Shown here: one piece after another, positions 3,013-23,516 of the stretch
How positions within the stretch are numbered: position 1 is the stretch's first letter
How the letters are laid out: every line of letters begins with the position of its first letter
Virus record (IMG/VR): IMGVR_UViG_2585427772_000010
From: a virus
Taxonomy: Duplodnaviria; Heunggongvirae; Uroviricota; Caudoviricetes
Reading direction: 5' to 3' (one strand)
Length of the DNA stretch: 23,516 nucleotides
The notes under the pieces: model-generated
Told to the model about the DNA's origin: nothing
The model's database searches: none
Seen by the model: only the letters and a program-made list of their open reading frames with translations
Translations under genes and position numbers: made by a program

Positions 3013-3237
3013 ATGCCGGACAACGTAGATTTTATTCAGGAACAACAGGCTGAATTACTGGAGCGCCAGATTAACGCGGCAAGGGTAAAACATTGCGGTG
3101 TTTCTTCGCTGGTTTGCGAAGAGTGTGACGCTCCAATACCTGCTGCCCGTCGTGCGGCTTATCCGTCAGCCACGCGTTGTGTTTCCTGTCAGTCAGTCTT
3201 TGAAGCAAAAAACAAACATTACCGGAGAACGGCATGA
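3013..3237 (+). CDS. TraR/DksA-type C4 zinc-finger protein (P2 orf82 position)
   Basis: 74-aa ORF with CxxC...CxxC (CEECDAPIP...RCVSCQ) characteristic of the DksA/TraR zinc-finger family. Confidence 0.65.
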   Translation: MPDNVDFIQEQQAELLERQINAARVKHCGVSSLVCEECDAPIPAARRAAYPSATRCVSCQSVFEAKNKHYRRTA

Positions 3238-6107: not shown

Positions 6108-6482
6108 ATGGGGAAGCAAGGCAAAGGCAAAGGCAACAAAAATCAGGTTAAGGTTACGTGGGCTCAGGCGTGGCGGGATGTAATGATAAGAGCCATGTCT
6201 AATGGTCAGTTGATACCTATTACCATCAGTATTATTTTAATGATTGCTGCATGGAGGTTACCAAAAACAGACTTGTCCAATTTAGCCTTCTCTATTGTTG
6301 ATGGCTTTAAGGAGCATTCCTTGGTTGGTTGGGCTATCTCGGTAATAGTGGGTTTGGCTTGGTCTGCACATGCGCGAATCATGAGGCGCTGTTTTAGTTC
6401 CGAGGCACAGAGAATCGGTAACGAGAAAACAAAGTATCAACAAAGACAGACCACTCAAGCCTTGGGTACAAGTGATAAATAG
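6108..6482 (+). CDS. Small membrane protein with two predicted TM helices (cargo gene 1)
   Basis: 124-aa ORF; lysine-rich N-terminus, hydrophobic segments LIPITISIILMIAAW and LVGWAISVIVGLAWSA; AT-rich; start uncertain (alternative ATGs at 6183 and 6195). Confidence 0.5.
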   Translation: MGKQGKGKGNKNQVKVTWAQAWRDVMIRAMSNGQLIPITISIILMIAAWRLPKTDLSNLAFSIVDGFKEHSLVGWAISVIVGLAWSAHARIMRRCFSSEAQRIGNEKTKYQQRQTTQALGTSDK

Positions 6483-6502
6483 TTGTTTATTTAGGAGTTA
6501 TT

Positions 6503-7060
6503 ATGCTGACAGTGCTGTTTTATGTGCTGTTGGGTTTAGGCGCAGCACACTTCATTTACGAGCGAATCATTTTGCCGTCCATCCGACTTCATTATAGAAA
6601 CCAATTGTTTGCGCTTCGTGATGTCGCTAGGAGGAAAATCATTGATGGAGGTTCCGATACTTCCATGCAAGCGGCAACACTTGTGCATGACTCATTGAAT
6701 AACGCTATCAATAGATTGCATTTACTCACGTTGCCAAACAAATTTCGTGCTCAAAAGCGTATGGCAGAAAACCATGCAATAAGGCAGAAAATTCGGCGTG
6801 AGATAGATGTTTTCAAACGCTGTGATGATAGAGAAGTTGTTGATGTACTGTTTAAATCCGGTCGGATACTTGAAAATGTACTGTTATTCAATAGCTTAAT
6901 GTTATTGCTTTACATGTTTCCATTTGTCCTTGCTGTATGGTTCTGTGTTAGGGTCATAAAGACAGCAAGTAGTTTAGTACAGTGGGTCAAAGGAAGAGAT
7001 TTAGAGGAAGCTATAATGCTGCTTCCTGATACTCAGGTTGAAAAGGTTGTATACGCATAA
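6503..7060 (+). CDS. Membrane protein with N- and C-terminal hydrophobic helices (cargo gene 2)
   Basis: 185-aa ORF; AGGAG 6 nt upstream of the ATG; 20-nt gap from gene 1 (operon); hydrophobic N-terminus (LTVLFYVLLGLGAAHFIY) and C-proximal helix (LLFNSLMLLLYMFPFVLAVWFCV); followed by a terminator. Confidence 0.65.
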   Translation: MLTVLFYVLLGLGAAHFIYERIILPSIRLHYRNQLFALRDVARRKIIDGGSDTSMQAATLVHDSLNNAINRLHLLTLPNKFRAQKRMAENHAIRQKIRREIDVFKRCDDREVVDVLFKSGRILENVLLFNSLMLLLYMFPFVLAVWFCVRVIKTASSLVQWVKGRDLEEAIMLLPDTQVEKVVYA

Positions 7061-7089
7061 AAATCACCCCTTAGGGGGTGATTTTTTTA
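7061..7089 (+). terminator. Rho-independent terminator
   Basis: ATCACCCC-TTAG-GGGGTGAT hairpin followed by a 7-T run immediately after the 6503-7060 stop. Confidence 0.7.
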
Positions 7090-7299
7090 CATGACTTTTG
7101 ATTAGCTGACATTGTAAATCCGCATGTATCAGATGCATTGTTTTGCATGTGGAAATGGGTGTTTTCACTGCCAGCTATCGCTACATGTAGCAAAAACACG
7201 GGCTTAATAAGAAATCATTCTGCCATAAGGCATAACTTCCCCGCGTGCTCAGGTATTGACGTCATAGATATGGATCTTTTTTAATCAAGGTATGGTATT

Positions 7300-8247
7300 A
7301 TGAAGATATTTATTAGTTGGTCAGGTCAGGACAGCCTGGAGATAGCAAAAGTATTACGGGATTGGATACCGAATGTTATTCAAGTAGCTGAGCCGTACGT
7401 ATCAGCGGAAGATATTGATAAAGGCACTCGCTGGGCGACTGATATATCAAAGGAACTTGATGACTCTTCTTATGGGATTATTTGCCTTACAAAAAATAAT
7501 ATTAATGCACCGTGGATAAATTTTGAGGCGGGGGCTTTAGGTAAAAAGGTTGATAAGAGCCGGGTTAGTCCTTTCTTGTTTAAAATTAAACCATCTGAGA
7601 TAACAGGCCCAATATTACAATTCCAGTATACTCGTTCGGATGATAAGAACGATATTTTGAAGTTGATGTTGTCAATAAATAATCAAGCAGGATTTTTGAC
7701 TGAAGAACGCTTAACTAAAGCTTTCGAGCAATGGTGGCCAAGTTTAGAGCGTGAGTTAGATAACATTCAAGATATTAACCCTGTAGATAAAGATTCCACT
7801 AAAAAAACAAAAGGTGATTCGACTTCTGAGATACAAAATCTTTCCAAAATTGTTGAAAGTTTGCTGGATATTAGCCGAACAAATCACCAATTATTGCGTG
7901 ATCCAGCATCATTATTGCCAGAAGAATATGTTAGCAAAATAATAAACAGGGAAGGGCGTAAAGAAACTGTTTTAAAAATTGTAGCTTCTGATTTATTATC
8001 CATGCATCATTCACTAATTCGTGTAAAAAGAAGATTTATTCGTCGTGGTATTGATGAAACATCTAGGAGCGAGTTAATTGAATCATTAAATAAAATGATA
8101 ATGGATTGTTCTAGAGTAATCGCTCACTTAGATAATTATTGTGGGGCTTCATCAAACAATATGTTCAATAGTGCGCTTAGATTGCGGACCAGAAATTTAA
8201 TTGACATGATGGATGAGGAGGATGCAGAACGGGATGAAATGGAATAA
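7300..8247 (+). CDS. TIR-like domain protein with uncharacterised helical C-terminal half (cargo gene 3)
   Basis: 315-aa ORF; N-terminal ~130 aa carries the bacterial TIR-like pattern (KIFISWSGQD ... GIICLTKNN ... PWINFEAG) with a glutamate at the position of the catalytic Glu of TIR NADases; C-terminal ~170 aa is charged/helical and unrecognised. The domain call is from motif reading only. Confidence 0.6.
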   Translation: MKIFISWSGQDSLEIAKVLRDWIPNVIQVAEPYVSAEDIDKGTRWATDISKELDDSSYGIICLTKNNINAPWINFEAGALGKKVDKSRVSPFLFKIKPSEITGPILQFQYTRSDDKNDILKLMLSINNQAGFLTEERLTKAFEQWWPSLERELDNIQDINPVDKDSTKKTKGDSTSEIQNLSKIVESLLDISRTNHQLLRDPASLLPEEYVSKIINREGRKETVLKIVASDLLSMHHSLIRVKRRFIRRGIDETSRSELIESLNKMIMDCSRVIAHLDNYCGASSNNMFNSALRLRTRNLIDMMDEEDAERDEME

Positions 8248-8791
8248 TCAATTTTGACTAATCATAAATAATTTTGCATATATAAACTTATAATGCCGCA
8301 GCCGCTATTTTTCAGCGGCTGTATATCGCTTATAATGGGTATGTTATTTTTATTTTGATAAAATCATTAAAATTGTCGATGTTATATGAATGCACATGTA
8401 TTATTAATGTTAGAAGATTATGCCTGCTTACGGCTATTGTGCTGAATTCAACTATGAACGCATCAGTATTAAAATCGTTCCATGAAATGTTCTTCGTCTA
8501 CAGCAGATGATGGGCAACGAAAAAATGACGCTGAGTGAGTTGGTCGGGGAGAATTGTTAGAGGTATTTATGGAGTGGTTTAATAATATCGGTCAATCCTG
8601 AGTTGCAGCATCACATAGACGATAGGGAATCTCTCCAGTCGTTCTGGAATGGCAGCGTTGAACAACAAGCACAGCGAGGCGTTAGATGCCCATCAGATTG
8701 ACACAGAGGGTTTATGAATCGCTGGGATTTACTTAGTTTGAAAAATAATATATTTATATGTTTTTGTATTGTGTTTGTTAAGGAGTTTGGA

Positions 8792-8998
8792 TTGAAAAGA
8801 AAACTGATTTGTGTTATGGCTTTTTGGGGGGCGTTGCTGGCTGGTTGTAATGAGAGTAATAAAAAAGAAGTTGAGGGTTGTATTGAAAGAGGTGTCCAAT
8901 ATTTTATAGAGATTGGTTCTTACCCTAAATTAAGTGATGGGCGTGATGCTGTAAAAGTTGCTACTGAACGTTGTAATAGAACAATAACGGCTTTCTGA
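8792..8998 (+). CDS. Small predicted lipoprotein (cargo gene 4)
   Basis: Track ORF 8714-8998; preferred start is the in-frame TTG at 8792, preceded by AAGGAG (8780-8785), giving a classical lipoprotein signal peptide (KRK, hydrophobic core, lipobox LLAG-C); about 49-aa mature protein with three further Cys. Confidence 0.5.
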   Translation: MKRKLICVMAFWGALLAGCNESNKKEVEGCIERGVQYFIEIGSYPKLSDGRDAVKVATERCNRTITAF

Positions 8999-9000
8999 TA

Positions 9001-9918
9001 ATGGATTATACGAGCTATATAATAGGACAGCTTCAGGTTGAGGATATTATTGATGCAATTAAAGGCGTTAATAATACTAATGTCATAAAAGATTATGTGC
9101 TGCCTGTAGTATTACCAATTATATCTTCTGTGCTGAGTTACTTTATTGCAACTAGGTTGTTTTATCGGCAGGAGGACCTTAAAGCACAAAGAAGAAAGGT
9201 AAGCGTTGTAAATAAATGTATTTATGACTACTTTTCTGCAATGACAACGTTGTTGCAAATTAAAGGGAATTATTATGGTGGGGTAAGTATAAGTGAAAAT
9301 CCTATCGAGAGGGCTTTAGCTTTTCCTGTTGTGGTTTTTTCTGGTGCTCCTCTATCATCAGATTTAAGTGAGTTGGCCTGTATATTGAGTCAAAAGGGAG
9401 TAGGGAATAATAGAGAGCCAGCAAAGACTACTAACTGGGGGGATGCTTTTGCTGTTAGTGATATAGCAAGAAGGTTTAACAGCCTATTGGCTGCATTAAA
9501 TGTTAGGAATGATTTTGATGACACCTATAGAGGAATGATTATTGAATCAACAGGTTCACCTTTGCCTACGATGCGTTTTAAAAATGATGATATTGTTAAT
9601 GCTATAGGTAGTAATAAGGCAGCTTATTACATTGATATTACTGAGCAAATAATGATTATGATAGATGTTTTGTTGCTTGATATTAATCTGTTGCTCAAAG
9701 AGTTGCCATTGTATGCTGAATCGCTGTTTGACAAAAGAGTAATGCAAGAAGATTCAGGGATTCTTAAATTCAATGATTTGCACGAACGTTTTCCTCTACT
9801 TATGAAACCTGTAACGCCACCTTCGATTAAACTCATGTCTGATTATTTGGGGTACAGTGAAGATGAGATCTTACGACGCTATCCATACCCGTTCTTTAAT
9901 ATGCATGATTGTGAATGA
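9001..9918 (+). CDS. Uncharacterised 305-aa protein with one N-proximal TM helix (cargo gene 5)
   Basis: ATG 2 nt after the lipoprotein stop (coupled); hydrophobic segment VLPVVLPIISSVLSYFIATRLF; AT-rich; no family recognised. Confidence 0.7.
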   Translation: MDYTSYIIGQLQVEDIIDAIKGVNNTNVIKDYVLPVVLPIISSVLSYFIATRLFYRQEDLKAQRRKVSVVNKCIYDYFSAMTTLLQIKGNYYGGVSISENPIERALAFPVVVFSGAPLSSDLSELACILSQKGVGNNREPAKTTNWGDAFAVSDIARRFNSLLAALNVRNDFDDTYRGMIIESTGSPLPTMRFKNDDIVNAIGSNKAAYYIDITEQIMIMIDVLLLDINLLLKELPLYAESLFDKRVMQEDSGILKFNDLHERFPLLMKPVTPPSIKLMSDYLGYSEDEILRRYPYPFFNMHDCE

Positions 9919-10040: not shown

Positions 10041-10171
10041 CTGCGCGCTGGCGGGGGTGATGATTGTCTGAGCGCGTCGTGATGGCGTTTAGATTGTGCG
10101 CCGGGGCGTTGGTGTGTCTGCGGGGTGTTTTGTACAGTGGCGAGCGTGTGAGGGCGTGATGACGGGGGTGT

Positions 10172-10198: not shown

Positions 10199-11233
10199 TC
10201 AGCCGTTGTCAGTGTCCAGTGAGTAGTTTTTAAAGCGGATGACCTCCTGACCGAGCCAGCCGTTTATTTCCCGAATCCTGTCCTGTAACGGGATAAGTTC
10301 ATTGCGGACAAAGACCTTTGCCACTTTCTCAATATCGCCCAGCGACCCGACGTTTTCCGGCTTGCCACCCATCAACTGAAAGGGGATGCGGTGCGCGTCC
10401 AGCAGGTCAGCGGCGCTGGCTTTTTTGATATTAAAAAAATCGTCCTTCGTGGCCACTTCACTGAGCGGGATAATTTTAATGCCGTCGGCTTTTCCCTGTG
10501 GGGCATAGAGAAACAGGTTTTTAAAGTTATTGCGGCCTTTCGACTTCACCATGTTTTCGCGGAGCATTTCGATATCGTTGCGATCCTGCACGGCATCAGT
10601 GACGTACATGATGTATCCGGCATGTGCGCCGTTTTCGTAATACTTGCGGCGGAACAGCGTGGCCGACTCATTCAGCCAGGCAGAGTTAAGGGCGCTGAGA
10701 TATTCCGGCAGACCGTACAGCTCCTGATTAATATCCGGCTCCAGCAGGTGAAACACGGAGCCGGGCGCGAAAGGTGTCGGCTCGTTGAAGGACGGCACCC
10801 ACCAGTAAACATCCTCCTCCACGCCACGGCGGGGATATTTTGCCGGGGAGGGTTCCAGTCTGATGACCTTACCGGTGGTGCTGTAACGCTTTTCCAGAAA
10901 CGCATTACCGAATACCAGAAAATCCAGCACAAAGCGGCTGAAATCCTGCTGAGAAAGCCACGGGTGTGGGATAAACGTTGAGGCCAGAATGTTACGTTTG
11001 ACGTAAATCGGTGAGCTGTGATGCACGGCAGCACGCAGGCTTTTTGCCAGACCGGTAAAGCTGACTGGTGGCTCATACCATCTGCCGTTACTGATGCACT
11101 CGACGTAATCCAGAATGTCACGGCGGTCGAGTACCGGCACCGGCTCACCAAAGGTGAATGCCTCCATTTTCGGGGCGCTGGCGGTCATTTTTTTTGCCGC
11201 AGGTTGCGGTGTTTTCCCTTTTTTCTTGCTCAT
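10199..11233 (-). CDS. Q: Portal protein Q
   Basis: 344-aa ORF, same length and position as P2 Q; start ATG overlaps the P stop (TGATG). Confidence 0.9.
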   Translation of the reverse strand: MSKKKGKTPQPAAKKMTASAPKMEAFTFGEPVPVLDRRDILDYVECISNGRWYEPPVSFTGLAKSLRAAVHHSSPIYVKRNILASTFIPHPWLSQQDFSRFVLDFLVFGNAFLEKRYSTTGKVIRLEPSPAKYPRRGVEEDVYWWVPSFNEPTPFAPGSVFHLLEPDINQELYGLPEYLSALNSAWLNESATLFRRKYYENGAHAGYIMYVTDAVQDRNDIEMLRENMVKSKGRNNFKNLFLYAPQGKADGIKIIPLSEVATKDDFFNIKKASAADLLDAHRIPFQLMGGKPENVGSLGDIEKVAKVFVRNELIPLQDRIREINGWLGQEVIRFKNYSLDTDNG

Positions 11234-11795
11234 CAGTAAAACTCCAGAATGGTGGATGTCAGCGGGGTGCTGATACCGGCGGTGAGTGGCTCATTTAACA
11301 GGGCGTGCATGGTCGCCCAGGCGAGGTCGGCGTGGCTGGCTTCCTCGCTACGGCTGGCCTCATAGGTGGCGCTGCGTCCGCTGCTGGTCATGGTCTTGCG
11401 GATAGCCATGAACGAGCTGGTGATGTCGGTGGCGCTGCGTCCGCTGCTGGTCATGGTCTTGCGGATAGCCATGAACGAGCTGGTGATGTCGGTGGCGCTG
11501 ACGTCATATTCCAGACAGCCACGGCGGATGACGTCTTTTGCCTTGAGCACCATTGCGGTTTTCATTTCCGGCGTGTAGCGGATATCGCGTGCGGCGGGAT
11601 AGAACGAGCGCACGAGCTGGAACACGCCGACACCGAGGCCGGTGGCATCAATTCCGATGTATTCGACGTTGTATTTTTCGGTGAGTTTGCGGATGGATTC
11701 CGCCTGAGTGGCAAAGTCCATGCCTTTCCACTGGTGACGCTCAAGTATTCTGAATTTACCTCCGGCCACCACCGGCGGTGCCAGCACCACGCATC
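11233..11795 (-). pseudogene. P: Terminase large subunit P, C-terminal fragment only, carrying an in-frame 63-bp tandem duplication
   Basis: Only ~185 codons remain of a gene that is ~590 codons in P2; the reading frame runs into the K fragment on the other strand; the upstream promoter and N-terminal part are absent. Confidence 0.8.
11368..11493. repeat. Perfect 63-bp tandem duplication (2 copies) inside the P remnant
   Basis: 11368-11430 and 11431-11493 are identical; the 10-mer GGTGGCGCTG precedes each copy and a partial third GGCGCTG follows; encodes a duplicated 21-aa segment (SATDITSSFMAIRKTMTSSGR). Confidence 0.9.
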
Positions 11796-11797
11796 CG

Positions 11798-12250
11798 GCG
11801 CTGGCCGTGTCCGAAGGGACGGCGAATCATCCGCTGACGAAAAACCGGGGCTATGACGTGATAGTCACCGGACTGGACGGAAAGCCGGAAATTTTCACCG
11901 ACTACAGTGACCACCCGTTCGCACATGGTCGACCGGCGAAGGTGTTTAACCGTCGCGGTGAAAAATCCACGGCCTCCGGTCGCTATCAGCAGCTTTACCT
12001 GTTCTGGCCGCATTACCGCAAACAGCTTGCCCTGCCGGATTTCAGTCCGTTGTCACAGGACAGGCTCGCCATTCAGTTGATCCGCGAACGCGGTGCACTG
12101 GATGACATCCGGGCGGGACGCATTGAGCGCGCCATTTCACGCTGTCGCAATATCTGGGCGTCCCTGCCGGGTGCCGGTTACGGTCAGCGTGAGCATCCAC
12201 TGGAAAAACTGGTCACCGTCTGGCGTACCGCCGGCGGCGTACCGGCTTAA
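11798..12250 (+). pseudogene. K: Endolysin K (lambda R-like lytic transglycosylase), 5'-truncated
   Basis: Translation (SEGTANHPLTKNRGYDVIV ... IWASLPGAGYGQ) aligns with lambda R from about its residue 17 onward; the catalytic-Glu motif SEGT is retained but the N-terminus, RBS and upstream holin gene are missing. Confidence 0.75.
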
Positions 12251-12264
12251 ACGGAGTAAACACC

Positions 12265-12690
12265 ATGAAGAAATTATCCCTTTCACTGATGCTGAATGTG
12301 CCGCTGGCGCTGATGCTGGCACTGTCCCTGATTTACCCGCAGAGCGTGGCCGTCAGTTTTGTCGCCGCCTGGGCGATTCTGGCGACGGTTATCTGTGTGG
12401 TTGCCGGTGGTGTCGGCGTGTATGCCACTGAGTATGTGCTGGAACGCTACGGGCGGGAGCTGCCGCCGGAATCGCTGGCCGTGAAGATTGTCACGTCGCT
12501 GTTTTTGCAGCCGGTGCCGTGGCGCAGACGGGCAGTAGCTCTGGTGGTGATGGTGGCGACGTTTATCTCGCTGGTCGCTGCCGGGTGGATTTTTACCGCG
12601 CTGATTTATCTTGTGGCGTCGCTGTTTTTCCGGCTGATACGTAAAGCCTGCCGTCAGCGTTTTGAGGGGCGGGAACCATGTCAAAGCTGA
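12265..12690 (+). CDS. lysA: LysA (membrane protein of the P2 lysis cassette)
   Basis: 141-aa strongly hydrophobic multi-TM protein directly after K, as in P2. Confidence 0.8.
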   Translation: MKKLSLSLMLNVPLALMLALSLIYPQSVAVSFVAAWAILATVICVVAGGVGVYATEYVLERYGRELPPESLAVKIVTSLFLQPVPWRRRAVALVVMVATFISLVAAGWIFTALIYLVASLFFRLIRKACRQRFEGREPCQS

Positions 12691-13103
12691 TGATTGTGCT
12701 GGTTGTGCTGTTATCGCTGGCGGTGGCGGGGCTGTTTCTGGTGAAGCATGAAAACGCCAGCCTGCGCGCCTCGCTGGACAGGGCGAACAACGTCGCCAGT
12801 GAACAGCAGACGACCATCACCATGCTGCAAAATCAGCTTCATGTTGCCATCACCAGGGCAGACAAAAACGAGCTGGCGCAGGTGGCACTGCGTCAGGAAC
12901 TGGAGAACGCCGCGAAGCGTGAAGCACAGCGCGAGAAAACCATCACGAGGTTACTTAATGAAAACGAAGATTTTCGCCGCTGGTATGGCGCTGACCTGCC
13001 TGATGCTGTGCGCCGGTTGCACCAGCGCCCCGCCTGCACCGACGCCAGTGATTGTCGCCAACGCCTGCCCGAAAGTGAGCCTTTGCCCGATGCCGGGCAG
13101 TGA
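12678..13103 (+). CDS. lysB: LysB, Rz-like inner-membrane spanin
   Basis: 141-aa ORF with N-terminal TM helix followed by coiled-coil-like region; overlaps lysA stop. Confidence 0.8.
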   Translation: MSKLMIVLVVLLSLAVAGLFLVKHENASLRASLDRANNVASEQQTTITMLQNQLHVAITRADKNELAQVALRQELENAAKREAQREKTITRLLNENEDFRRWYGADLPDAVRRLHQRPACTDASDCRQRLPESEPLPDAGQ

Positions 13104-13248
13104 CCCGGAGACGAACGGCGATTTAAGTGCCGATATCCGGCAGCTTGAGAACGCGCTGGCACGTTGTGCCAGCCAGGTAAAAATGATTAAACACTGTCAG
13201 GACGAAAACGATGCTCAAACCCGACAGCCTGCGCAGGGCGCTGACTGA
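12958..13248 (+). CDS. lysC: LysC, Rz1-like outer-membrane lipoprotein spanin, embedded in +1 frame of lysB
   Basis: Internal ATG at 12958 of track ORF 12748-13248 gives MKTKIFAAGMALTCLMLCAGC... with lipobox LCAG-C and a proline-rich mature region; starts inside lysB and extends beyond it. Confidence 0.7.
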   Translation: MKTKIFAAGMALTCLMLCAGCTSAPPAPTPVIVANACPKVSLCPMPGSDPETNGDLSADIRQLENALARCASQVKMIKHCQDENDAQTRQPAQGAD

Positions 13249-13678
13249 TGCCGTCACGGTGCTGAAAACTAACCCCGATATGCTGCGGATATTCGTGGAT
13301 AACGGGAGTATTGCCTCCACACTGGCGGCGTCGTTGTCATTCGAAAAGCGTTACACGCTCAATGTCATTGTGACCGACTTTACCGGTGATTTTGACCTGC
13401 TCATCGTGCCGGTGCTGGCGTGGCTGCGGGAAAATCAGCCCGACATCATGACCACCGACGAAGGCCAGAAAAAGGGCTTCACGTTTTATGCAGACATCAA
13501 CAATGACAGCAGCTTTGATATCAGTATCAGCCTGATGCTGACCGAGCGCACGCTGGTCAGTGAGGTTGACGGTGCGCTGCATGTGAAGAATATCCCGGAA
13601 CCTCCGCCGCCGGAGCCAGTCAATCGCCCGATGGAGCTTTATATCAATGGTGAACTGGTGAGCAAGTGGGATGAATGA
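13211..13678 (+). CDS. R: Tail completion protein R
   Basis: 155-aa ORF, same length and position as P2 R. Confidence 0.85.
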   Translation: MLKPDSLRRALTDAVTVLKTNPDMLRIFVDNGSIASTLAASLSFEKRYTLNVIVTDFTGDFDLLIVPVLAWLRENQPDIMTTDEGQKKGFTFYADINNDSSFDISISLMLTERTLVSEVDGALHVKNIPEPPPPEPVNRPMELYINGELVSKWDE

Positions 13679-14123
13679 GTTTAAGCGTTTTGAAGACCGA
13701 CTGACCGGACTGATTGAATCGCTGTCACCGTCTGGGCGTCGGCGACTGAGTGCAGAACTGGCGAAACGTCTGCGGCAGAGTCAGCAGCGTCGGGTGATGG
13801 CACAGAAAGCTCCGGACGGCACACCCTACGCACCACGCCAGCAGCAGAGCGCCAGAAAAAAGACCGGTCGCGTTAAGCGAAAAATGTTTGCGAAACTTAT
13901 CACCAGTCGTTTTTTGCATATCCGCGCCAGCCCTGAACAGGCATCAATGGAGTTTTACGGCGGGAAGTCACCGAAAATCGCCAGTGTGCATCAGTTCGGT
14001 CTGTCGGAAGAAACCCGGAAAGACGGTAAGAAAATTGATTATCCGGCGCGTCCTCTGCTCGGCTTTACCGGTGAGGATGTGCAGATGATTGAAGAGATTA
14101 TCCTGGCTCACCTTGAGCGTTAG
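13671..14123 (+). CDS. S: Tail completion protein S
   Basis: 150-aa ORF overlapping the R stop, same length and position as P2 S. Confidence 0.85.
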   Translation: MNEFKRFEDRLTGLIESLSPSGRRRLSAELAKRLRQSQQRRVMAQKAPDGTPYAPRQQQSARKKTGRVKRKMFAKLITSRFLHIRASPEQASMEFYGGKSPKIASVHQFGLSEETRKDGKKIDYPARPLLGFTGEDVQMIEEIILAHLER

Positions 14124-14194
14124 TTTTATCCAGACAGAGGCTGATGCGCAATTAAACATTGAGCGGCCATGCTGGTCGCTCAATGTTTAGAGGT

Positions 14195-14980
14195 TTATGA
14201 GTGATTTTTATTTGATGCTTTGTATTCTAAAACCTTCTTATTGGCGTAAAAGAATTTTGTATATGACAGGAATATAACCAGACCTGAAGTGAAATAGACG
14301 AGGGATAGTATTAATAATGCTTTTTTGCGACTGTTATTATCTTTAATCTCCAGGCTTAACCATTCGGAGTCCTCCTCGTTTAGCTGTAAGAGCTTATTGC
14401 AGGCGATTTCAGGAAGTGTGTCTTTTATAAATACGTTTTGCAGTCTCTTGCAATCGGCAAGGCTATAAGTTTTATTAAATTCAACTGCTTTATTTTTGAA
14501 GGATAAAAGAACTTTGTCACTATAAACATAGTACATCATGTTTTTATATGGTATGCCTATGGCATCCCTTACTATAACGGATTGTTCGTTGTGTATGTAA
14601 CATGCGAGGAGAATGTAAAAAATACTGGCCAGAATTACAATTATTGTTTTAATTATGTGTGGTGGTTTTGTTATGTCACCCCAGATGCGAGTAAGGAAAA
14701 AATACGATGTTTTTAGTTTTCCATCAATCAGTCCCTGCTGTATCATTCTCACATTTTCAATGCCTGATACATTGATTCCGTTAATTATTTTAAATAGTTG
14801 AATGTCGCGCCACTCGCGGTCAAGTCTTTTTAATTTTTTGTCTGAATATCCAAAATTGAAATAATGTGCAATAAGCCTCATAAGGTTACTTTTACCAAAG
14901 CTAAAAAATGCTAATACTGCAAAGCTACAAAGGAAAAAAACGATTAGCCCCCACACATTAGTCACATTATAGCTGACCAT
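14195..14980 (-). CDS. AT-rich multi-pass membrane protein at the orf30 position, antisense to the late genes
   Basis: 261-aa ORF; AAGGAGAG 5 nt upstream of the ATG on the minus strand; about three hydrophobic helices; composition visibly more AT-rich than flanking S and V. Confidence 0.7.
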   Translation of the reverse strand: MVSYNVTNVWGLIVFFLCSFAVLAFFSFGKSNLMRLIAHYFNFGYSDKKLKRLDREWRDIQLFKIINGINVSGIENVRMIQQGLIDGKLKTSYFFLTRIWGDITKPPHIIKTIIVILASIFYILLACYIHNEQSVIVRDAIGIPYKNMMYYVYSDKVLLSFKNKAVEFNKTYSLADCKRLQNVFIKDTLPEIACNKLLQLNEEDSEWLSLEIKDNNSRKKALLILSLVYFTSGLVIFLSYTKFFYANKKVLEYKASNKNHS

Positions 14981-20287: not shown

Positions 20288-20881
20288 ATGTTTACTAAGC
20301 GACGATTAAAAAATATTAACTGGGAGGCAAGTTCAGTGATTCTTGCTATGGTTCTCTTTGTTGGAAATATATTTTATACAAATCATCGTGATGATATAAG
20401 CATGGAGGCTGAGAGGGACAGTATCAGAACAATGTTTGCATATGAAATCGCTAATAACCATCGCGCTCTCACTTTTCTTGATAAAACGAGACATATTGGC
20501 TTTGACGAAAATTCGGAGCATTTTGTTGGCGAGCCTTTTGCCATTAATGTCAAATCATTAGGGGGACCTCGCTTACAGATTGCATTAAACCAGACTGATA
20601 AAGTGTTTAAATCCTACTTCGGCGAATTAAGTAAGCTTGATAAAGAGGATGTTACTCTTCTTATGGACTATTACCATGAGCAAAGCATCCTGCTGGAGCG
20701 TGTAAAATCTACGTTACAGAAGATGAAAAGTGGTAATGATATTAAAGTTGATATTGATGGTTGCTTATTAGAAGAACACTTCATGAATGAGCTTAATCTT
20801 TCTAATATTTTGCTTAAACGCTATAGCTATTTATTATCACAACACGCTAAGGAACATAAAACAAAAGATTTACATAATTGA
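20288..20881 (+). CDS. AT-rich membrane-anchored protein at the Z/fun position
   Basis: 197-aa ORF; AAGGTG 5 nt upstream of the ATG; single N-terminal TM helix (SSVILAMVLFVGNIFY); flanked by AT-rich intergenic DNA between G and the FI remnant. Confidence 0.65.
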   Translation: MFTKRRLKNINWEASSVILAMVLFVGNIFYTNHRDDISMEAERDSIRTMFAYEIANNHRALTFLDKTRHIGFDENSEHFVGEPFAINVKSLGGPRLQIALNQTDKVFKSYFGELSKLDKEDVTLLMDYYHEQSILLERVKSTLQKMKSGNDIKVDIDGCLLEEHFMNELNLSNILLKRYSYLLSQHAKEHKTKDLHN

Positions 20882-21090: not shown

Positions 21091-21127
21091 GGGGGGAATT
21101 GCCCCCTTTTTTTTTTTTTTTTTTTTT
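21091..21127 (+). terminator. Strong rho-independent terminator with a 21-T tract
   Basis: GGGGG-AATTG-CCCCC hairpin (21092-21106) followed by 21 consecutive T (21107-21127). Confidence 0.7.
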
Positions 21128-22613: not shown

Positions 22614-23516
22614 ATGAATCAATCTTATGGACGGCTGGTCAGTCGGGCGGCGATTGCTGCGACGGCGATGGCTTCGCTGCTATTGCTGATTAAAATTTTT
22701 GCATGGTGGTATACCGGGTCGGTGAGTATTCTCGCCGCGCTGGTGGATTCGCTGGTGGATATCGGCGCGTCGTTGACGAATTTACTGGTGGTGCGATATT
22801 CCCTGCAACCTGCCGACGATAATCACTCGTTTGGTCACGGTAAAGCTGAGTCCCTCGCGGCGCTGGCGCAAAGTATGTTTATCTCCGGTTCGGCACTATT
22901 CCTGTTTTTGACGGGTATTCAACATCTGGTATCTCCAACACCGATGACAGATCCAGGCGTCGGGGTTATCGTGACAATTGTGGCGCTAATTTGTACGATT
23001 ATCCTTGTCTCGTTTCAGCGTTGGGTGGTGCGCCGGACGCAAAGCCAGGCGGTGCGGGCTGATATGCTACATTACCAGTCTGATGTTATGATGAACGGCG
23101 CAATTCTGCTGGCGCTGGGGTTGTCCTGGTACGGCTGGCATCGCGCCGATGCTCTGTTTGCATTGGGGATCGGCATCTATATTTTATATAGCGCGTTACG
23201 CATGGGATATGAGGCGGTACAGTCATTACTGGATCGCGCATTGCCTGATGAGGAACGGCAAGAAATTATTGATATCGTGACTTCCTGGCCGGGTGTTAGC
23301 GGCGCTCACGATCTTCGCACGCGGCAGTCAGGGCCGACCCGCTTTATTCAGATTCATTTGGAAATGGAAGACTCTCTGCCTTTGGTTCAGGCACATATGG
23401 TGGCGGATCAGGTAGAGCAGGCTATTTTACGGCGTTTTCCGGGATCGGATGTGATTATCCATCAGGACCCCTGTTCCGTCGTACCCAGGGAGGGTAAACG
23501 GTCTATGCTTTCATAA
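22614..23516 (+). CDS. fieF: Cation-diffusion-facilitator iron/zinc efflux transporter FieF (YiiP), host gene
   Basis: Start at internal ATG 22614 ([29 protein letters not shown]...); 300 aa; sequence as I recall it for E. coli FieF; higher GC, multi-TM transporter plus C-terminal cytoplasmic domain. Confidence 0.85.

Follow-up and report, generated by a model that had tools for sequence, protein, structure and literature searches.

A very recent tandem duplication, probably seeded by 10-bp direct repeats, in the terminase remnant of a defective P2-like prophage of Escherichia coli

In Escherichia coli, slippage or template switching between nearby direct repeats of less than 200 bp proceeds independently of RecA and gives rise to deletions and expansions (PMC7145654). 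Tandem duplications formed in this microhomology-mediated way are one class of event with which a short perfect repeat in a bacterial gene can be compared. A second is the class of variable-number tandem repeats, or minisatellites (MLVA), in which units of about 10-100 bp lie head to tail between conserved flanks. For a repeat that falls in a phage packaging gene, a third point of reference is the intact protein, here the large terminase gpP of phage P2 (NP_046758.1, 590 aa). Here we describe a locus that bears comparison with all three, in which a 63-bp segment of gene P is duplicated in tandem within the remnant that a 5.3-kb deletion has left in a defective P2-like prophage. We put at about 0.85 the probability that this is a real and very recent tandem duplication in a pseudogene, arising from 10-bp direct repeats after the 5.3-kb deletion and selectively neutral.

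The window, by which we mean the whole stretch of 23,516 nt that was analysed, corresponds to contig JORM01000046.1 of E. coli 6-319-05_S3_C3 (ST827), with 100% identity over 20.5 kb. It holds a P2-like prophage in which int, C, cox, B, A, cargo genes and Q are followed by lysis and tail genes. The features on which the argument depends are the following.

10199..11233, minus strand: gene Q (portal), an intact ORF of 344 aa directly downstream of the P remnant
11233..11803, minus strand: 3' remnant of gene P (large terminase), collinear with P2 1221-1728, about 169 ancestral codons plus 21 duplicated
11365..11427, minus strand: copy 1 of the 63-bp unit, opening with the 10-mer GGTGGCGCTG and encoding SATDITSSFMAIRKTMTSSGR, which is P2 gpP residues 524-544
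11428..11490, minus strand: copy 2 of the 63-bp unit, 100% identical to copy 1
11491..11500, minus strand: closing 10-mer GGTGGCGCTG, the ancestral downstream direct repeat, already present and equal to P2 1416-1425
about 11422-11442: new unit-to-unit junction, GATGTC-GGTGGCGCTG-CGTCC
11800..11803, no strand: deletion junction with 4-bp microhomology GCTG, P2 1728 joined to P2 7048 (inside K)
11801..12250, plus strand: K', a 5'-truncated endolysin gene, 149 or 147 aa as called versus 165 aa in P2

The cargo genes are observations in their own right. Between A and Q lies a low-GC block (6108-9918), whose plus-strand stretch 6108-8247 matches the PADLOC models 2TM-TIR, 1TM-TIR and TIR-TM with E values of 1e-58 to 1e-118; from these matches the cargo is a predicted TIR-based anti-phage system in a P2 variable hotspot. 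Two further genes in the same block (8714-8998 and 9001-9918) gave no match. Low-GC (~37%) cargo ORFs of 261 aa (14195-14980, minus strand) and 197 aa (20288-20881, plus strand) sit at the P2 orf30 position and a second P2 variable locus, and neither has a Pfam or PADLOC match. A 21-base T homopolymer occupies 21107-21127.

DNA homology of the remnant to P2 gene P ends at P2 1728, and about 5.3 kb has been lost at the junction with K, comprising the P promoter, the 5' two-thirds of P, all of O, N, M, L, X and Y, and the first ~16 codons of K. The genes removed include those for scaffold (O), capsid (N), small terminase (M), head completion (L), tail protein X and holin Y; with the head genes, the holin and tail gene X deleted, the element makes neither heads nor lysis. 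The window is P2-collinear on both sides of the gap, keeps the int-to-tail order otherwise and lacks essential morphogenesis and lysis genes, as a defective P2-like prophage does. A domesticated tailocin was considered and rejected, as tail gene X, holin Y and the start of endolysin K are deleted along with the head genes. The left side of the deletion junction reads GGCGCTG, the same 7-mer as the core of GGTGGCGCTG, an agreement probably due to chance in GC-rich coding sequence.

For what is left of gene P, GenBank gives a 184-aa 'terminase-like family protein' (KEM57506.1) with an internal GTG start at 11787. This is the second GTG; exact protein look-ups with the first GTG (185 aa) and with an internal ATG (162 aa) as start returned no match. 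Pfam finds in the product only a partial Terminase_6C domain (RNaseH-like nuclease), matched from model position 21 onward and interrupted by the duplication, residues 7-117 aligning with model positions 21-135 and a second stretch following; the Terminase_5/HTH and Terminase_6N ATPase domains are found by Pfam in P2 gpP and not in the window product. The P promoter region (P2 ~3016-3087) falls within the deletion, and a consensus scan of the minus strand from 11790 to 14490 found no sigma-70-like site that would drive the remnant. Given that a partial, split Terminase_6C domain is all that remains, and that the gene is collinear with P2 up to the point where it runs into K, the term 'terminase remnant' used in an earlier reading of the sequence alone is correct and the gene is dead: the remnant is a pseudogene, not a terminase. 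Since gene P is dead, an in-frame duplication within it is without consequence, and the frame itself is preserved simply because 63 is 3 x 21, so that any multiple of 63 would keep it.

Within the remnant, identity at a lag of 63 is unbroken across 73 positions, which defines a perfect tract of 136 bp (11365-11500), or 2.16 units. Tandem Repeats Finder reports the same array with period 63, 2.2 copies and a score of 273, by far the top array of the window, and a second repeat search likewise returned two fully identical (100%) copies. In 23.5 kb of sequence, the chance of exact identity over 73 bases at a fixed lag is of the order of 4^-73 per position, so the tract is not explicable by chance. 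The 10-mer is found at 11365, 11428 and 11491 and at no other site in the window. The unit is in frame when read on the minus strand, the peptide SATDITSSFMAIRKTMTSSGR is encoded twice, and the 10-mer supplies the codons of Ser-Ala-Thr, a tripeptide that borders the segment on either side in the ancestral protein (…DV-SAT-DITSS…GR-SAT-YEAS…). Direct comparison agrees in each of these respects with the sequence-only reading, which had described two identical 63-bp copies (11368-11430 and 11431-11493) bounded by GGTGGCGCTG and followed by the partial start of a third, with 21 amino acids of P duplicated; its coordinates differ from those of the 10-mer-bounded units listed above by a phase of 3 bases, and the two descriptions are equally valid. 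No Chi site that might have triggered recombination lies in or near the array; the only two in the window (GCTGGTGG, at 22739 and 22751) are held in a perfect 12-bp tandem repeat, CGCTGGTGGATT x1.9, at 22738-22760.

The ancestral state can be read from P2 and from relatives of the window itself. P2 carries GGTGGCGCTG at 1353 and 1416 with one unit between, and the best phage and E. coli matches of the remnant, including P2 and P2_2H1, all have a single unit with the 10-mer on both sides. All top matches span 508 bp for 571 query bases, hence one copy in each of them. Gene Q was used as query to locate sister assemblies, and the same deleted prophage with one unit is present in at least 20 other assemblies, where the tract between the flanks measures 73 bp, one unit plus the 10-mer. 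One of these, L011, has the same deletion and a single unit identical in sequence to that of the window; L021 (with 16 similar places), L023, L025 and L026 share the deletion junction and the single unit and show no difference from the window within the tract. The truncated K' protein, which marks the deleted prophage lineage, is found on at least 24 contigs. Both window copies carry a G (CCATGAAC) where P2 has an A (CCATAAAC), so the duplication post-dates the split from P2. The single-copy ancestor that had been expected is therefore present in P2, in P2_2H1, in the best phage and E. coli matches and in the same deleted prophage elsewhere, and the fact that one unit is already flanked by the 10-mer in P2 and in the sister prophages points to a microhomology-mediated tandem duplication.

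One of these relatives contains an unrelated length difference. The terminase gene of Escherichia virus P2_2H1 (LR595870.1) is 36 bp longer than that of P2, with the insert GGGGTCGTCGGCAGCGTCAGATGTGTATAAGAGACAG at ~1293-1328, which contains what we take to be the Illumina Nextera read-1 adapter. In all likelihood the insert is a contaminant that entered the assembly and was annotated as coding, and P2_2H1 was rejected as a second duplication allele because its extra 36 bp are of adapter origin and lie elsewhere in the gene.

The unit-to-unit junction was sought in other terminases, as intact terminases naturally carrying two copies had been named in advance as the finding that would speak against a recent event. 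A 70-mer with the junction at its centre was searched against 5,426 complete E. coli genomes and 50,697 GenBank phage records and gave no match (E<=1e-18), while a control 70-mer from the same gene, searched at the same settings, is found at 1,736 places in 1,520 of the complete E. coli genomes; the junction is thus present at 0 of 1,736 P-gene places. Three large collections that were also searched did not yield it either. A junction 23-mer is absent from IMG/VR and matches one GTDB representative (Zoogloea oryzae) and three JGI metagenome contigs; three of these four matches were inspected and rejected as true junctions, being unrelated GC-rich sequence matched by chance, and the fourth (L005) comes from the same study as L004. 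Homologous proteins were compared up to 320 aa in length, intact terminase genes being assessed at the DNA level, and ten homologous C-terminal fragments from at least nine genera (Citrobacter, Klebsiella, Enterobacter, Yersinia, Serratia, Iodobacter, Bordetella, Herbaspirillum and others) are all single-copy in the duplicated segment. This segment lies within Terminase_6C and has residues that are invariant among the homologues (T, D, F, M, I and T). An insertion of 21 aa at this place would very probably ruin the nuclease, and such damage could plausibly account for the restriction of the allele to a gene that had already died.

The clone from which the window comes has been sampled more than once. 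Isolates 6_319_05_S3_C1, C2 and C3 and 6_175_07_S3_C1 and C2 are all ST827, phylogroup B2 and O4:H40, and were collected from two children on 4/15/09 (Richter et al. 2018, Table S1, PMC6222053). Both children are Tanzanian, and 6-319-05_S3_C1, C2 and C3 are colonies from one and the same stool. Exact look-ups of synthetic remnant proteins containing 1 to 7 units gave the following results.

1 unit: 69 contigs, including 6-175-07_S3_C1 and C2
2 units: only 6-319-05_S3_C3
5 units: 6-319-05_S3_C1
6 units: 6-319-05_S3_C2
3, 4 and 7 units: no exact match

At the DNA level the arrays are likewise perfect, with five units in S3_C1 (L007) and six in S3_C2 (L010). Besides its 154-kb contig with six units, the S3_C2 assembly includes a redundant 973-bp contig with two (L009, JORG01000033.1); six-copy and two-copy contigs in one assembly indicate that the assembler left the locus unresolved. 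The short contig is equivalent to window 10835-11807, one of its ends adjoining an error-prone cluster of G-runs and the other lying 4 bp beyond the deletion junction. In the other child, 6_175_07_S3_C1 (L023) has the identical deletion junction and one unit, obtained with the same sequencing and assembly pipeline, and a 163-aa one-copy product is on record for the second isolate, 6_175_07_S3_C2. The duplication allele is private to one clone, from child 6-319-05. Its existence is well supported, with the junction in four contigs from three isolates of this child and a single copy for the other child from the same pipeline, and the distinction among isolates between one copy and two or more is secure.

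The exact number is a different matter. These genomes are MaSuRCA 2.3.2 assemblies of 100-bp HiSeq 2000 reads, and k-mer content was computed for haplotypes of 1 to 7 units. For k<=74 the k-mers are identical for every array of two or more units. Between one unit and two or more, 89 100-mers are new and 26 are lost, and the junction needs 20 31-mers beyond the single-copy genome. Arrays of three or more units have 26 100-mers without counterpart in a two-unit array, which itself has none beyond those of longer arrays, and the 100-mer sets are the same for all arrays of three or more, so that five and six copies are indistinguishable by read content. Since every 100-mer of a two-unit array is also present in a longer one, 'two' is a lower bound with which any true number of at least two is compatible. 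Of the earlier claim of two copies, the duplication itself therefore stands, with n>=2, and exactly two does not, as 100-bp reads give a minimum only.

Where near-identical assemblies disagree with the window at single bases, the difference is mostly G/T and sits in or beside a G-run. At window positions 10055, 10834, 10847 and 10852 the window has G and the assemblies from unrelated projects that were read across each site have T; at 7533 it has G versus T in L011 and in both sister assemblies, the only ones that cover the site. Further differences occur in the sister contigs at 2704, 5787 and 13968, and three of the sites fall in portal gene Q. These differences are probably systematic HiSeq 2000 errors. 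Such discrepancies at G-runs mean that the local accuracy of the assemblies is limited, and the imperfect base-level quality is a further reason for treating two copies as a lower bound.

With this in view the differing numbers of units can be weighed. They might be taken at face value, as those of a true hypervariable minisatellite whose 2, 5 and 6 copies are real differences between cells, or the product of mixed cultures, through expansion and contraction in the gut or in culture. Three colonies give three numbers, as perfect arrays on contigs of 142-155 kb; the five- and six-copy contigs contain the 26 100-mers that would be impossible at a true n of 2; and the six-copy and two-copy contigs of S3_C2 could reflect a mixed culture. 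Against reading the numbers in this way, the usual assembler error would be collapse to the minimal path, here n=2, and the equality of k-mers up to k=74 for all n>=2, and of 100-mers for all n>=3, means that 2, 5 and 6 may be renderings of one and the same number. In favour of real differences is the known instability of perfect tandem repeats that reach 73 bp or more (PMC7145654). On balance we regard true hypervariability as a minority reading, though one with real weight. Somewhat more doubtful still is the stronger statement that both the origin and the expansion of a minisatellite have been caught as they happened, from one copy in 6-175-07 to 2, 5 and 6 in the stool of 6-319-05, with real heterogeneity within the host; if it were true, the locus would be a natural neutral reporter of repeat-expansion dynamics in the gut.

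The opposite suspicion, that the whole duplication is an artefact of assembly and the true copy number is one, draws on the short-read-only assemblies, the base errors at G-runs and the discordant copy numbers, and is nevertheless very improbable. The junction requires the 20 new 31-mers and 89 new 100-mers, sequence foreign to a single-copy genome, and occurs independently in three isolates of child 6-319-05; the same pipeline returned one copy for at least one isolate of the other child (L023), the one-copy product being recorded for the second isolate as well. A 10-bp repeat is also shorter than the k-mers and overlaps usually employed for 100-bp reads, so that a false loop would not be expected. 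Least probable of all is that two copies belong naturally to this terminase lineage or were selected in it, for example as a functional repeat of the nuclease or as a new protein made from the remnant. The preserved reading frame and the 184-aa GenBank annotation might suggest as much, but the frame is uninformative where every multiple of 63 keeps it, and the junction is absent from all 1,736 P-gene places, from the phage records and from the ten homologues. The remnant, furthermore, has neither the HTH nor the ATPase domain nor the first ~20 positions of the nuclease model, the P promoter region is deleted, and the minus strand upstream (11790-14490) offers no sigma-70-like site.

The preferred reading, a recent duplication from 10-bp direct repeats in an already defunct gene, can be set out as a sequence of probable steps. 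In its ancestral form gene P has two copies of GGTGGCGCTG at a spacing of 63 bp. These short direct repeats probably misaligned at replication and yielded a second unit, joined head to tail to the first with exactly one 10-mer between the two; slippage is a likely route, as is RecA-independent switching of template between sister strands. The molecular mechanism is suggested by this anatomy, which would fit either fork slippage or template switching at a post-replication gap, and RecA independence and the link to replication would be expected from the 10-bp length of the repeat together with the literature (PMC7145654). A recent slipped-strand or microhomology-mediated event, as the sequence-only reading had proposed, is supported by the direct repeats in the ancestor, the single one at the junction and the identity of the copies. 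The order of events would be a P2-like prophage, then the P-K deletion, which is widespread with one unit, and then the duplication, in a sub-clone of child 6-319-05. Placed in this way the duplication would be later than the 5.3-kb deletion that ruined the terminase, head and lysis genes, and because that deletion had already destroyed the gene, the duplication would be selectively neutral; from the lost promoter and N-terminal domains, neutrality is almost certain. Once formed, at least 73 bp of perfect tandem homology would make further expansion or contraction much likelier, and the 2, 5 and 6 copies of the sister assemblies may represent ongoing instability or the inability of 100-bp reads to count. 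The locus had been predicted to be prone both to expansion or contraction and to assembly errors, and its assembly with 1, 2, 5 and 6 copies in sister isolates bears this out.

The biological weight of the finding is small, since the mutation is neutral and affects a gene already dead in a prophage that is itself decaying; it is an ordinary mutational product of a well-known type with no plausible function. What is newly documented is the one-copy ancestor, the direct-repeat substrate, an allele private to one clone and the ambiguity visible in its sister genomes. The junction is a clone-specific marker that separates the isolates of one child from a near-identical clone in the other, and the locus provides a clean natural case of a 10-bp direct repeat seeding a tandem array after purifying selection has been lost. 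It also calls for caution with 100-bp MaSuRCA assemblies, in which deposited numbers of 2, 5 and 6, together with a redundant two-copy contig, are not to be taken as biology before the reads have been consulted.

Set beside the systems with which we began, the remnant is like P2 gpP in that its DNA is ~98% identical to the last 508 bp of P2 gene P and in that the duplicated peptide, gpP 524-544, belongs to the Terminase_6C nuclease domain. It is unlike gpP in consisting of the C-terminal ~29%, without Terminase_5/HTH, Terminase_6N and promoter, and in having a 21-aa insertion in the nuclease fold. To VNTR or minisatellite loci (MLVA) it is similar in its head-to-tail array within an ORF, with a unit of appropriate size, a period that is a multiple of three and conserved flanks, as well as in an assembled copy number that differs among close isolates (1, 2, 5 and 6, numbers taken from assemblies and not from reads). 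Unlike them, the window array is perfect and is confined to one clone from one child, which makes it a newborn array and not an established polymorphic locus. With the microhomology-mediated tandem duplications of E. coli it has in common a 10-bp direct repeat at both ends of the segment in the ancestor, a single repeat at the junction with bases neither inserted nor lost, identical copies, and, as in the RecA-independent class (PMC7145654), repeats that are far below 200 bp and close together. In anatomy there is no difference between them; what distinguishes the present case is that it arose naturally, in a prophage pseudogene and not in a reporter construct.
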